A stretch of 64,000 bases of DNA from a candidate division WOR-3 bacterium (lineage in GTDB: Bacteria > Hydrothermota > Tepidihabitantia > SM23-42 > JAOAFX01). The stretch spans positions 1,385 through 65,384 of the forward strand of contig JBDRVV010000013.1 in assembly GCA_039802005.1 (NCBI GenBank), given 5' to 3'. A model generated the notes under the pieces. That model saw only the letters and a list, made by a program, of their open reading frames with translations, was not told the origin of the DNA and searched no databases. The first letter of the stretch is position 1; every line of letters begins with the position of its first letter. A program made the translations under genes and the position numbers. Positions 43,766 through 64,000 of this stretch are shown here, piece by piece.

Positions 43766-43907
43766 ACGGCACCCCGCGTACACAATTATAAATTATATCT
43801 TAGTTTTTCTTTTTGTCAATTATAGTATAACGCCGTTAATGTAATTGTAGAGTAATCTCTGCCACTGTAATTTAATCCCCCTGTTTCCCCCCTTTAGAAA
43901 AGTGGAA

Positions 43908-45173
43908 TTAGTCCTTTCGCTTGCTCAAAATATTCTGCTCGTATTTTTTTATTGCGCCAAGCCAGTCCGGGTCAAGTGGGACATTGGAGATAAAACAGAA
44001 ATAATCCCAGACTGCACTGAAAGGCAGTGTCTTTAACGCTTCATAAATACCGAGCCTGGAGATATAATCTTTTCTTTCTTCAAATTTCTTTAACATCTTT
44101 ATCGGTTCAAGCATGGCGTATAATAGTGCCTTCTGGACTGAACGCGCACCCAGGACCCAGGCGCCGATACGGTTGAGGGTTGCATCAAAATAATCAAGCC
44201 CGATATAAATTCTTGAAAGTGCATCGCACCTTATGATTTCTGAAAATAACTCTCTGAGTGTATCATCAAATAGTGGTATATGGTCGCTGTCCCAGCGCAC
44301 ACCCCGGCTGATGTGAAGCAGAATGCCTTTGATAAATAAAAGCAGAGATGATATTTTATCCGCAATAGATTCAGTTGGATGAAAATGTCCGAGGTCAAGA
44401 CAGAGCATTAAATCATTCTTTAAGGCATAACTCAGATAAAATTCAAATGAACCCGTAACAAATGATTCGCTTCCGATTCCGAAGAGTTTTGGCTCCAGGG
44501 AATCTCTTAAAAATTTTTCTGGATATTTTTTTGAATATATTTTATCAAGGGAATCTTTGAGCAGACTCCGATAACCGATACGGTCAACACAGATGTCCTT
44601 CATTCCATCAGGTATCCAGAGATTATGGACCGAGGGCATTTTTAATTCCCTGCCAAAATAGGCTGCGATCTCCCGCGAGCGGCGGACATGCTCAATCCAA
44701 AAATCCCTTATCTTTTTATTTTTACTGCTCAAGGTAAATCCATCTTCAGACAAAGGATGAGAAAATAGTGTAGCATTGAAATCAAGCCCTAATTTTCTTT
44801 CTTTTGCCCAGTCAACCCAGGATTGAAAATGCTCAATGCCGATCTCATTCCGCTCAACCTTTTTGTTCCCAAAATCACCATATATCGCATGGAGATTGAT
44901 GCGGTGTCTGCCCGGGATTAAAGAGAGTGCCATTGCTAAATCCTGGCGCAATTCTAAAATATTCCTTGCCCTGCCTGGATAATTTCCCGTGACCTGTATC
45001 CCGCCCGAAAGTGGTGAACCCTGCATTTCAAATCCCTTTACATCATCACCCTGCCAGCAATGGATTGAAAGGCTTATCCGCGCAAGTTTTTTTATTACCT
45101 GCTCGGTATCAATCCCAAATTTTTGATACCTTTCCTGTGCATATCTATATTGTTCAATGATCTTATTCTTCAT
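43908..45173 (-). CDS. rhaA: L-rhamnose isomerase
   Basis: IHCWQGDDV motif, ~420 aa. Confidence 0.85.
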   Translation of the reverse strand: MKNKIIEQYRYAQERYQKFGIDTEQVIKKLARISLSIHCWQGDDVKGFEMQGSPLSGGIQVTGNYPGRARNILELRQDLAMALSLIPGRHRINLHAIYGDFGNKKVERNEIGIEHFQSWVDWAKERKLGLDFNATLFSHPLSEDGFTLSSKNKKIRDFWIEHVRRSREIAAYFGRELKMPSVHNLWIPDGMKDICVDRIGYRSLLKDSLDKIYSKKYPEKFLRDSLEPKLFGIGSESFVTGSFEFYLSYALKNDLMLCLDLGHFHPTESIADKISSLLLFIKGILLHISRGVRWDSDHIPLFDDTLRELFSEIIRCDALSRIYIGLDYFDATLNRIGAWVLGARSVQKALLYAMLEPIKMLKKFEERKDYISRLGIYEALKTLPFSAVWDYFCFISNVPLDPDWLGAIKKYEQNILSKRKD

Positions 45174-60462: not shown

Positions 60463-61528
60463 ATTTTTTACCTCCTTTTATGTCCACCGATGTCCAGGCA
60501 TATAATGGTTTTATTTTAATGCCTGAACACCGGTCATTAAAGTGGATAATGTAGCCGTGGATATGCTGTGGGAGAATGTCATTTATTGATTATTCTTTAT
60601 CATGGAAATCAATATGTTATGCAGCAATATTACATAATATATTGTATTTCCTTTAGGGTGGTCACAATGTTTATCTTTGTGAAGTAATTATTGCCTTCGT
60701 TAACTCCGCACAATTTATTGACTTTTTAAAGGCATTGATAATTTCCATTTGCTAATTTTTTGACCCTTTCCAAAATTCTGGATATGTTTTAATTTATCTG
60801 GCATAAAAAATTTTATTTCATCAGCTGGATATTGGCAGAAAGACTAAATTCCAGCTTTCTGCTTCTCGCTAACATAATTGAAATATATCAATTTGCCAAT
60901 GTTTCGAATATTTCCTACTTGGGATTGATATTGCATGCATAACATATTGATATTAAAAAACCTGTGCCGCAAGCGGTCAATATCACTAATCCTGGTCAAG
61001 CACCGGAAAGTGAGTTGTTAAAGACCAAATCCCCCAACAGGGGATACAAAACATAAGGACAGCTGCTACTGACGATGCAGTAAACGGCTGAGATATGGTA
61101 TCTGATAATAATTATAACCCGCAACGAAAGGGGTAGGAGAGGTAGAGCTCGACATTAATCTCTAAATCACTGTTACTACCCCCCCCATATATTTTTATGC
61201 ATTCAACCTTGAGAGCGTTTCTAACGGTAGTCTTGGTCTAAAAGCGGTCTCGGGCTTCAAACAGCAGACTTTTGGTCAGAAGACCCATCATATATTATAA
61301 TCAAAATTTTCAAATCGTCAAGGGGTAAAATGCACTTTCGGACTAACCCCATGCATTTTCCTCAGTATACAGTATAATAGTAGCTATATATTATATTAGT
61401 TACTACATCCCACCAAGTATGGGTCACAATTCTAAAGCCGATGGATGGAAAAAAACAGGCAGATTGTCTTCTCTATTGACTTTTGCGTATTATTAAATAA
61501 ACTTAAGTAATATAAAGGAGTACAATAT

Positions 61529-62854
61529 ATGGCAAATTACTGGTACGGTTTAGTGATAAGGAACGATGTGAAAAATTATTGTATCAATAACGGTATATTA
61601 GTAGATAGAAAGGATAGTAAAGATCTTTATAAAGATGTTAGACCGGGTGATACGATATTCATTATCAAAAAATGGTACAATAGTAATGACTGTGAGATTT
61701 ATGGTCCATTTATTGCAAAGTCTGGTTTAGAAGAAAAACCAATACAAATTAGTAAACTTACTTTTGACCTGCAAATCAAGATTGAACCATTGGGTGAAAT
61801 CAGTAAAATTGAAATACCAGATAATGCAGATATCACAAAGGCTATTTTTCAAACAAATAAAAGGCAAATTGATGAAAAAATTGGGAGAGATATAGAAGAG
61901 CAATTACAACAAATAAGATTAGAGGCTCAAGAGAAATTTGGGCATAAACCCAGTTTGAAGTTTGAGGATGTAATTGGATTTGAGTATTTGAAAAAGAGAA
62001 TGAAAAAATTAATTAAAGATTATGAGCGAAAAGAGGCGTATAACCTTCAAATCGCACGCGGTTTTTTTCTATTCGGACCACCTGGAACAGGCAAAACAAT
62101 ATTTATTGATGCGGTTGCTAATGAGTTGGGGTGCGATACTTATCCCGAAATTACCCCGGCGGTAATTGCTGGTTTCCCGGGCGAAGCTGAGAAAAATTTA
62201 GAAAATATGCTGGATAGTTATTTCAAGAAATTTGAAAACGAAGGTATTGGCGTTATGTTTATTGACGAATGTGAATCACTATTTCCAGCACGTGCACAAA
62301 ATTATTCTTCGGTTATGGCGAGAATTGTGCCAACCCTGTTAAGAAAAATAGATAGATTGTTAAAGTATTATCCTCATGAGAAGATATTTATCTTCGCAGT
62401 AAGCAATCATCCTGAAGATGTTGATCCGGCATTCCTTCGCCCTGGAAGGTTTGCAGAAATATATTATGTAGGTTTACCGAAAGAAGAAAATATAAGAAAA
62501 CTCTTTAATTTCTATATCAGACAAAAAATGAATAGTGATACTTTTGACCAGGAGATTTTTAAAGATGATTGTAAAGAATTGTTGAAATTTTTAGAAGACA
62601 AAAGAAAATCATTGTGCAACAGAGATAACATACATCCCGAATTCGGTAGATTTTCGCCTGCCGATATTGAAAAAATTATCAAAGATGCGGCATTAGAAGC
62701 CCATTATCAAAATAGAAAGATGACTCTTCAGGATTTAAAAGAGGAGATAGAAAAAACAATGCCATCAATTACCAACGAAACCCTTATTGCCATGGAAGAC
62801 TTCAAAAAATCGCATCCTAACTGGAAAGACGCCGATACTGGAAATCAAGACTGA
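61529..62854 (+). CDS. Fusion of an N-terminal PUA-like (EVE/ASCH-like) domain and a classical AAA ATPase
   Basis: N-terminus MANYWYGLV...RPGDTIFII...IYGPFIAKSG is EVE-like. Walker A GPPGTGKT, Walker B MFIDECE, Arg finger PAFLRPGRFAE. Confidence 0.65.
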   Translation: MANYWYGLVIRNDVKNYCINNGILVDRKDSKDLYKDVRPGDTIFIIKKWYNSNDCEIYGPFIAKSGLEEKPIQISKLTFDLQIKIEPLGEISKIEIPDNADITKAIFQTNKRQIDEKIGRDIEEQLQQIRLEAQEKFGHKPSLKFEDVIGFEYLKKRMKKLIKDYERKEAYNLQIARGFFLFGPPGTGKTIFIDAVANELGCDTYPEITPAVIAGFPGEAEKNLENMLDSYFKKFENEGIGVMFIDECESLFPARAQNYSSVMARIVPTLLRKIDRLLKYYPHEKIFIFAVSNHPEDVDPAFLRPGRFAEIYYVGLPKEENIRKLFNFYIRQKMNSDTFDQEIFKDDCKELLKFLEDKRKSLCNRDNIHPEFGRFSPADIEKIIKDAALEAHYQNRKMTLQDLKEEIEKTMPSITNETLIAMEDFKKSHPNWKDADTGNQD

Positions 62855-63537
62855 GAGGAAACCTTACTTGAAATAATCACTTCATACATCTCTTTCAATC
62901 TTCGTGCCTTGAAATTGGTTGGCTTTTCGTAATGGATGTTGCTATACGAGGGATGAAATAATACAATCACTTTGAAATTTCTATTATCAAAATGCATATT
63001 GAATCCCTCTTCGGGCATTGAGTTGGCAATAGTATATATATTTGCCTTCCTTAGATTCTGTGGGAGATAATCGTTTATCCTGCGCAGGGTTTTTAAGGCA
63101 TGCTTACCATAAACCACGATATATTCAAGTTTTGGTAAAAGCATTATTTCATTTTTAAGATAATCAACGCAATACCTGTCACAGGTATGATATTTAAAAT
63201 ATTTTCTTTCATAAGGAATACATTTAACCGCCATTGTCCAGTAGACAAATTTATCTTCAGTGGGATTAAAAGGTCTGCCAATCATACGACAAATATCTTT
63301 TGTTACTTTACCCTTTTGCGCTATAGCTTTCTTTGTCAAATGTTGGAAAATCTCATCATAACTCAAACTATGATAATTTGGTGGTATTTCTTCAGAAAGG
63401 AATAATACCGAAACACAATCAAGTGAACGCTCCAGACGCTTGAACAAAAAAGGCTTAAAATGCTTGAATCTCGGGCATTGATCATTCTGACAGTTCATCA
63501 CACTATTATGTAAATCATTATAAGTTTTTAAGTCCAT
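62845..63537 (-). CDS. Uracil-DNA glycosylase superfamily (family 4-like) protein with a divergent motif A
   Basis: VYWTMAVKCIP (cf. NVVKCRPP) and HPSYSN (HPSPL motif B). N-terminal Cys pairs are consistent with an Fe-S cluster. Motif A reads LSEEIPP instead of GEGPG. Confidence 0.45.
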   Translation of the reverse strand: MDLKTYNDLHNSVMNCQNDQCPRFKHFKPFLFKRLERSLDCVSVLFLSEEIPPNYHSLSYDEIFQHLTKKAIAQKGKVTKDICRMIGRPFNPTEDKFVYWTMAVKCIPYERKYFKYHTCDRYCVDYLKNEIMLLPKLEYIVVYGKHALKTLRRINDYLPQNLRKANIYTIANSMPEEGFNMHFDNRNFKVIVLFHPSYSNIHYEKPTNFKARRLKEMYEVIISSKVSSQS

Positions 63538-63637
63538 TATACCACCTTAAATCAAAAATATTACGCCACCCGCCTTCCGCCATCCGCTAACTTTTCTCTG
63601 GCGGTAAGCGGAAAGCGAATAGCGGAAAGCGGACTCG

Positions 63638-64000
63638 GTCGCAATCCTTTATTCATCAAGGTAAGTTTTCAGACGCACCCCCTCACCCTTCCCTCTCCCC
63701 CTTGGGGAGAGGATTAAGGTGAGGGGCATCAAGGTAAGTTTTCAGACGGGGAGATTGCTTGAATCCGTTTCCCCTCGTCGTCGAAGAGTCGCAATCCTTT
63801 ATTCATCAAGGTAAGTTTTCAGACTGCACCCCCTCACCCTTCCCTCTCCCCCTTGGGGAGAGGATTAAGGTGAGGGGCATCAAGGTAAGTTTTCAGACTA
63901 CAGAATACATCTAAAATTTTAAGACAAGAATTTGAAAGGGTCGCAATCCTTTATTCATCAAGGTAAGTTTTCAGACAAAAGAATACATTGCCCAGTGGGG
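63638..64000. CRISPR. CRISPR-like array running off the window end: 37-bp repeat GTCGCAATCCTTTATTCATCAAGGTAAGTTTTCAGAC x3, 40/41-bp unique spacers, plus two copies of a 53-bp GC-rich palindrome each followed by the 3' 20 nt of the repeat
   Basis: Repeats at 63638-63674, 63788-63824, 63940-63976. Half-repeats at 63728-63747 and 63879-63898. Palindromes at 63675-63727 and 63825-63878. Confidence 0.5.

Follow-up and report, generated by a model that had tools for sequence, protein, structure and literature searches.

The first two repeats of a CRISPR array at the end of the 64-kb stretch of DNA analysed here (the window) each carry a 48-nucleotide palindrome that belongs to the BoxC family of dispersed bacterial elements, followed by a second, partial copy of the repeat. 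The structure of these composite units, their position in the array, their reappearance in another strain and the family to which the palindrome belongs are direct observations. As for their origin, we give about an even chance to a history in which the palindrome entered the first repeat once, probably through the action of the adaptation integrase, and the resulting 111-nucleotide composite was then duplicated at the next spacer acquisition.

The array is read on the forward strand, and its full repeat, R (GTCGCAATCCTTTATTCATCAAGGTAAGTTTTCAGAC), is 37 nucleotides long and is present in three copies in the window. Repeat 1 (63638-63674) is followed by a 52-nucleotide insert (63675-63726) composed of the linker GCA and the four-arm palindrome of the BoxC/TM type (63679-63726), then by a 21-nucleotide partial repeat, R' (CATCAAGGTAAGTTTTCAGAC; 63727-63747), which is the 3' end of R (repeat positions 17-37), and finally by a unique 40-nucleotide spacer (spacer a, 63748-63787). 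Repeat 2 (63788-63824) begins a second series in the same order, with a 53-nucleotide insert (63825-63877) made up of the linker TGCA and an identical palindrome (63830-63877), a second 21-nucleotide R' from the end of the repeat (63878-63898) and a unique 41-nucleotide spacer (spacer b, 63899-63939). Repeat 3 (63940-63976) is plain, without an insert, and leads directly into spacer c, of which 24 nucleotides (63977-64000) are visible before the window ends. Each composite repeat (R, insert and R') spans about 111 nucleotides, and the two differ by a single base, located where R meets the insert (G versus TG). An earlier note on this DNA had described the full 37-bp repeats with their unique 40/41-bp spacers, and these are present as it said. 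The near-identical 53-bp insert that it reported does occur twice, but the copies measure 52 and 53 nucleotides and differ at the one junction base while their 48-nucleotide cores are identical; the partial repeat, given as 20 nucleotides, is 21 nucleotides in length.

Within the window, the 48-nucleotide palindrome is found twice and the 21-mer five times, and shuffled sequence is expected to yield neither. The 3' 21-mers are 73-78 nucleotides apart, and the three full and two partial repeats form the kind of series by which CRISPR repeats are recognized (at least three regular copies of 23-55 nucleotides). When folded as single-stranded DNA, R is almost devoid of structure (-1.1 kcal/mol). 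Spacer a begins with GGGGAGA and contains CCCCTC, two short stretches that are also present in the palindrome arms, possibly by chance.

Sister loci were retrieved by an exact-protein look-up of two genes adjoining the array, which yielded three other assemblies: L001, L002 (GCA_039802065.1) and L006 (GCA_965649275.1). Their flanks are 100%, 99.93% and 99.95% identical to that of the window, respectively, with six differences in 12.1 kb for L006. The contig of L001 stops within repeat 1. In L002, an upstream region of ~100 nucleotides as found in the window precedes five plain repeats; the spacers measure 34-42 nucleotides, and the palindrome is absent. The L006 array has eight repeat positions and unique spacers of 39-44 nucleotides; its positions 1 and 2 are R-TGCA-palindrome-R' composites, and the other six are plain repeats. 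The L006 48-mer is identical to that of the window and has the same orientation, such that all four copies of the palindrome (two in each array) are identical and point one way, and the spacers behind the composites are different. The third repeat of L006 (12415-12451), the first plain one past the composites, begins with GACGC rather than GTCGC.

Three spacers are visible in the window, five in L002 and eight in L006, and these 16 spacers (34-44 nucleotides) include no duplicates within an array and none common to two arrays. The spacers that lie beside the conserved flank all differ despite 99.93-100% flank identity, which is the pattern expected of polarised acquisition, and the first repeat is perfect in all sister arrays compared. 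New spacers enter a CRISPR array at its leader end. Therefore, the complete replacement of spacers beside a conserved flank, together with a perfect first repeat, points to a leader end with fast turnover. Judged by this comparison of strains, the locus is a genuine CRISPR array viewed from its leader-side, variable end. The 3' end of the repeat reads TTTCAGAC on the forward strand and ATTGCGAC on the reverse strand, a motif that leaves the direction of the array unsettled, and it is the strain comparison that favours a leader on the side of the neighbouring UDG-superfamily gene. The CRISPR reading proposed in the earlier note is thus borne out by the eight repeat positions of L006 and by the lack of any common spacer among strains whose flanks are 99.9-100% identical. 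That note had set two outcomes against its own reading. One was obtained, in that the motif belongs to a generic intergenic family (BoxC/TM_ECO), but the other, an absence of further repeats, is contradicted by L006.

A leader-like region (63541-63637, forward strand) extends from the UDG-superfamily gene to repeat 1 and contains two inverted heptad-repeat blocks, CGCCATC x3.4 at 63564-63587 and GCGGAAA x4.7 at 63601-63633 (Tandem Repeats Finder), which can pair with each other; the region folds at -16.3 kcal/mol (z = -2.0). It is kept in L001, L002 and L006 except for two SNPs in its last 12 nucleotides, where two of the six positions that distinguish L006 from the window across 12.1 kb are located. 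The allele carried by L006 is that of the palindrome-free L002 and not that of the window. Heptads similar to those of the leader-like region (GCGGAAT/GCGGATT) also flank copies of the palindrome family in L091 (1-230) and L104.

The UDG-superfamily gene itself (62845-63537, reverse strand; Pfam PF03167, E=5.6e-9) points away from the array and does not encode a Cas protein. An identical UDG-like protein adjoins the same array in the three other assemblies, and a search of 185,579 representative genomes with this protein gave distant, unrelated relatives only. None of the five genes nearest the array (UDG-like, AAA, an unknown protein, a DUF2201 VWA/metallopeptidase and AAA) is a cas gene, and a scan of 46 window ORFs returned housekeeping genes and no strong cas match among the top 25 families listed, in agreement with the earlier note, which saw no cas gene in the window.

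Several other features of the window deserve mention. The segment 55700-63537 resembles a defence island, with two AAA ATPases, the DUF2201 VWA/metallopeptidase, an unassigned 328-aa protein and the UDG-like protein; PADLOC IetA models were matched (best E = 4e-28), and these matches presumably correspond to the two AAA ATPases. Positions 60463-61528 (~1.07 kb) hold no ORF of at least 80 aa on either strand, no gene call in the sister assemblies and no Rfam match. The GC content of the window is 38%, its housekeeping genes include those for citrate synthase, aconitase and rhamnose isomerase, and three of its proteins carry a type IX secretion sorting domain (Por_Secre_tail), a hint that the host belongs to the Bacteroidota/FCB group; the 185,579 representative genomes contain no close relative of it. 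AT-rich intergenic stretches at 300-352 and 43872-43915 (e.g. GAAATTTGGAATTTGTTTCGGATTTCG...) are 82-92% similar to sequences in L044, L060 and L114, three metagenome contigs that carry the palindrome, and may represent a second dispersed repeat family.

With its weakly structured 37-nucleotide repeat, its unique spacers of 34-44 nucleotides and its one-ended turnover between near-identical strains, the locus is like ordinary CRISPR arrays, and it presumably resembles those of many class 1 systems (type I-A/B/D and type III), whose repeats are long and unstructured and whose spacers vary in length. It differs from ordinary arrays in that two 111-nucleotide composites carry a foreign palindrome and a half repeat, and in that no cas genes are apparent in the visible sequence. 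Furthermore, R matched no Rfam family, CRISPR-DR families included. BLAST searches of plasmids with R gave chance matches inside genes only, and neither IMG/VR nor the JGI metagenomes nor the 185,579 representative genomes contained a match to the repeat 21-mer. No protospacers were identified when 14 spacers were compared with 50,697 phage genomes or when three 25-mers were compared with IMG/VR, which is weak evidence given that the host is uncultured. A spurious ORF translated across the composite likewise had no match in a protein-collection search.

The palindrome, CCCCTCACC-cttc-CCTCTCCCC-ctt-GGGGAGAGG-attaa-GGTGAGGGG, forms two 9-bp stems without mismatches; its internal loop is asymmetric (CTTC versus ATTAA), its apical loop is CTT, and it is therefore not the 'perfect' palindrome of the earlier note. 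Watson-Crick folding as single-stranded DNA gives -19.1 kcal/mol (z = -4). On the basis of its sequence, it is a four-arm version of the BoxC/PIT/TM_ECO motif, with which it shares the blocks CCCTCTCCCC / GGGGAGAGG / GGTGAGGGG. It is identical at 37 of 39 positions to the BoxC copy between glnH and glnP of E. coli, and it fits the TM_ECO pattern, CCCTCNCCC-N3-6-GGGNGAGGG-N3-GGGNGAGGG, with two substitutions, as compared to one for the glnH-glnP copy; this pattern is known to tolerate a mismatched triplet (PMC4666352). Unlike established BoxC/PIT/TM_ECO elements, the window palindrome has an extra 5' arm (CCCCTCACC) that creates a fully paired four-arm hairpin, and it resides within a CRISPR repeat, with a 21-nucleotide flanking duplication, in a host with 38% GC. 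Its two copies, both within the array, are the only ones seen in 64 kb, an apparent departure from the multi-copy intergenic habit of the family.

Elements of the BoxC/PIT/TM_ECO family are G/C-rich, form an intrastrand triplex in vitro, and are found as multi-copy intergenic sequences in hundreds of genomes (Holder et al., 2015, PMC4666352, where earlier work on BoxC/PIT by Bachellier and by Maher is cited). They have no known function and have not been linked to a transposase or to mobility genes, and both their function and their mode of spread have been in question since the 1990s (PMC4666352). E. coli strains show unusual rearrangement at their TM_ECO loci, indicating local instability, and PIT/BoxC elements block DNA polymerase in vitro and lack promoter and terminator activity (PMC4666352).

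Close BLAST matches to the palindrome are present in replicons of Azospirillum, Rhizobium, Klebsiella, Enterobacter and E. coli. Of 5426 complete E. coli genomes, 5413 contain matches, with a median of five places per genome. A degenerate four-arm pattern was found in at least 120 metagenome contigs ranging from 38% to 73% GC, none of which has a CRISPR array at the palindrome relative. The closest metagenome relatives among the matches listed (46/48 and 45/48 identical) occupy ordinary intergenic sites in AT-rich contigs. We sought a pair of filled and empty BoxC sites in E. coli, and the glnH-glnP copy proved to be fixed in 5402 of 5426 genomes, making its footprint uninformative.

Some AT-rich metagenome contigs carry the palindrome in a unit of ~75 nucleotides with the AT-rich linker TAATTTATTGTWYGGAATTTCAAAG (L131 5500-5690; also L125 20-105, L110 and L072), and this unit is tandemly repeated in an intergenic region. 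Two subfamilies have strongly conserved flanks, ...TTCTAACCAAAAATATTTGAAATTT in one and CGCATTTATTTCTTTGACATGAGGC...CGATTCCGTTGAGCGTAATGAGAT in the other, and are spread over many unrelated metagenome contigs (L013, L018, L019, L047, L056, L063, L068; L014, L015, L046, L058, L083, L090, L111). In the organisms of these subfamilies, a larger repeated element seems to be built around the palindrome. Three other identities for the palindrome were considered and rejected: a terminator or promoter, as no such signal is linked to it; a known RNA, as Rfam gave only sub-threshold matches to generic hairpins; and a piece of a viral contig, as the three IMG/VR contigs that contain the inner 22-mer differ in the outer arms.

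The order R(1-37)-insert-R(17-37)-spacer is the geometry that results when 52/53 bp of DNA are inserted by strand transfer at nicks 21 bp apart and the gaps are then filled. The nick sites implied are between repeat positions 16 and 17 on the top strand and at the repeat/spacer boundary on the bottom strand, and on its right side the duplication ends precisely at this boundary. The insert and R' together measure 73/74 nucleotides, which is within the normal range for a spacer plus a repeat (71-81 nucleotides); this match is no more than suggestive, with a chance of coincidence that we estimate at ~30%. In both strains that have composites, these occupy only the two leader-proximal positions even though all repeats are identical targets, and for two random hits among the eight L006 repeats, the calculated probability of striking positions 1 and 2 is 1/28. 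This restriction to the leader end argues for an acquisition process rather than for a transposon that seeks out the repeat.

The earlier note favoured repeated insertion of an element with a 20-bp duplication. Its insertion geometry is retained here with a duplication of 21 bp, whereas repeated insertion seems less probable. In its most explicit form, this idea calls for a mobile palindrome of the MITE or REP type that recognizes the CRISPR repeat, with every affected repeat hit in its own event and a 21-bp target-site duplication created at each hit. We regard this as unlikely, although the palindrome family is multi-copy and dispersed across numerous genomes (other AT-rich contigs contain copies with 46/48 identity), a direct duplication of target does flank the insert, and the G/TG junction difference resembles what separate, slightly imprecise events would leave. 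Insertion sequences and MITEs are reportedly found inside CRISPR arrays or cas loci, and here too foreign repetitive DNA interrupts an array. However, the insert in this case is 48 nucleotides long, with no transposase and no family-typical target duplication, and it is confined to the newest repeats of an array that still appears to acquire spacers.

Data from the palindrome family bear directly on this possibility. Terminal inverted repeats, one hallmark of a MITE, are present in a trivial sense because the whole 48-nucleotide element is a hairpin. A target-site duplication at each copy, another hallmark, is not observed: direct repeats of 21-22 nucleotides flank the four CRISPR copies, but among the ~120 metagenomic family members listed there is none longer than 13 nucleotides, and most are at the chance level of 8 nucleotides or less. 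The family matches listed conserve only one base per side beyond the palindrome core. The 21-nucleotide duplication is therefore not a property of the palindrome family. When the palindrome was sought elsewhere in the window as a candidate MITE, as the earlier note had advised, no copy was found beyond the two in the array, and hence no donor; nor was a parent element encoding a transposase seen in the window. Independent insertion also fits poorly with the lack of transposase or mobility genes for BoxC/TM_ECO elements (PMC4666352), with hits at positions 1 and 2 alone in both strains, and with a duplication edge placed precisely at the repeat/spacer boundary.

We therefore return to a single insertion followed by duplication of the composite. 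Under this proposal, the leader-proximal repeat would have received 52/53 bp of DNA consisting of a short linker and the 48-nucleotide GC-rich BoxC/PIT/TM_ECO palindrome. Cas1-Cas2, whose presence in this genome is assumed, would have integrated the palindrome as an over-long, off-register 'spacer'; we infer this enzyme because one of the two nicks falls where integration on the spacer side normally takes place. The ordinary acquisition that came next would have made nicks at the leader/repeat and R'/spacer junctions, and gap repair would then copy the whole 111-nucleotide composite along with the new spacer, placing composites at the newest two positions. A hairpin between 21-nucleotide direct repeats should readily disappear through slippage or through recombination between the repeats, and such instability would account for the presence of composites in young units only and for their absence from one sister strain. 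The insert is most likely a tolerated by-product, with no benefit to the cell indicated.

Abnormal repeat lengths have reportedly been produced in molecular-ruler experiments with the E. coli type I-E system, in which changes to repeat motifs are said to alter the length of the repeat after spacer acquisition. The reasoning applied to those cases is the same as that used here, in that the integrase duplicates everything between its two nicks and a shifted nick gives an abnormal repeat. Those cases are engineered and involve changes of a few bases, whereas the present example is natural and includes a 21-nucleotide partial duplication followed by an apparent duplication of 111 nucleotides. Selection of the second nick by a ruler, as in E. 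coli type I-E, is at odds with a 111-bp 'repeat', and we know of no Cas1-Cas2 that nicks in the middle of a repeat. A still more specific version of the proposal, wherein the CRISPR integrase put in the BoxC palindrome off-register, at nicks 21 bp apart, and now copies the 111-nucleotide composite at each acquisition, is offered only as a tentative possibility.

Two details must be accommodated by a single insertion. Because the junctions differ (G versus TG), faithful duplication alone is insufficient and an extra slip would be needed. In addition, the window and L006 have no common spacer behind their composites, which means that the insertion arose twice or that older units have been deleted. 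An insertion that arose twice would have to have used the same nucleotide and the same orientation in both lineages; alternatively, an ancestral composite may have been followed by deletions, plus loss in L002. The proposal must also contend with the finding that the 64-kb window contains no palindrome outside the array that could have served as donor. Slow random decay after an ancestral insertion was rejected as not self-consistent, because the composite at the first position would have to outlast all older ones. The order of units across the 111-nucleotide repeat could also be partly mis-joined, as the window and L006 arrays are metagenome-type assemblies.

The same nick geometry and leader-proximal position would be produced if each composite were a separate aberrant acquisition. 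In such a scheme, the palindrome, present in a genomic or plasmid copy and perhaps stalling replication, would be a 'hot' structure-forming prespacer that Cas1-Cas2 integrates off-register into the first repeat in alternation with normal acquisitions, and the composite would never be duplicated. The inserts of 52 and 53 nucleotides recall the ±1-nucleotide variation of spacers acquired repeatedly, most scenarios already require an independent origin in two lineages, and the polymerase block caused by PIT/BoxC in vitro (PMC4666352) would suit a stalling prespacer. This explanation nevertheless seems improbable to us. It demands that palindrome and spacer alternated strictly through the last four events in both strains, and in L006 this alternation would have to set in after at least six normal acquisitions. 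The tandem Pal-R'-Pal-R' and R-spacer-composite arrangements that it would allow are not seen, and neither the 64-kb window nor the IMG/VR contigs yielded a donor copy of the palindrome.

Spread without Cas proteins can also be envisioned. Template switching is classically favoured by a hairpin that lies between 21-nucleotide direct repeats within a tandem array, and one chance insertion could have been followed by copy-choice or gene conversion that copied the palindrome and R' to the adjacent repeat, with slippage removing them later. The unusual rearrangement of TM_ECO loci between E. coli strains (PMC4666352) is in keeping with such events. We consider this route quite unlikely, as it offers no explanation for the exact landing of the first event on the repeat/spacer boundary, for the restriction to positions 1 and 2 in both strains, or for the presence of composites in two lineages with different spacers.

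Alternatively, the hairpin and half repeat might be a selected module, for example an RNA structure that changes how pre-crRNA is processed or how the newest spacers are expressed, or a source of a special guide, as it occupies the same place in two of the three informative strains. Precedent comes from type V-K CRISPR-associated transposons, in which a truncated repeat-spacer unit reportedly functions as a conserved homing guide outside the normal array (bioRxiv 10.1101/2021.02.06.429022). As in those units, a shortened repeat directly precedes the spacer here. Unlike them, the present units have strain-specific spacers, are located at the acquiring end and have a palindrome before each. Moreover, the module is missing from the sister strain L002, no promoter-like or terminator-like signal and no Rfam match above chance are associated with it, and PIT/BoxC elements lack promoter and terminator activity (PMC4666352). 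A selected role is thus very unlikely.

Finally, every source is a metagenome or draft assembly whose contig ends within the array or close to it, which raises the prospect of an assembly artefact or chimera. This is scarcely credible, since the same R-palindrome-R' junctions are found with different spacers in two independent assemblies, and a single read could span each junction. None of these explanations is as economical in accounting for both the confinement to leader-proximal positions and the exact boundary as a single insertion by the adaptation integrase followed by duplication of the composite, for which the order of events and the instability of the product are, like the enzyme, what we infer.

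A literature search produced no report linking BoxC or triplex motifs to CRISPR arrays, and the locus therefore joins two known things, a CRISPR array and a BoxC-type motif, in an unreported way. There is a practical consequence for genome annotation. Array-finding software would take the palindrome as a 52/53-nucleotide 'spacer' between a full and a truncated repeat, which would introduce false, self-similar entries into spacer databases.

The natural 111-nucleotide composite, seemingly duplicated with new spacers, also makes it possible to test directly what determines the choice of the second integration site, and whether working crRNAs are made from a half repeat preceded by a hairpin. If the integrase reading is true, the cut on the spacer side would be set by the 3' sequence of the repeat and not by a measured distance, and this locus would be a natural demonstration of such a rule. 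The units of a CRISPR array are ordered and time-stamped, and the array here reveals a recent BoxC insertion, its exact footprint and its apparently rapid loss, the last of which agrees with the instability reported for BoxC/TM_ECO motifs (PMC4666352). On the same reading, this would be the first dated footprint of a BoxC-type motif entering a new site, and a hint that integrase-type reactions help to spread the BoxC family.
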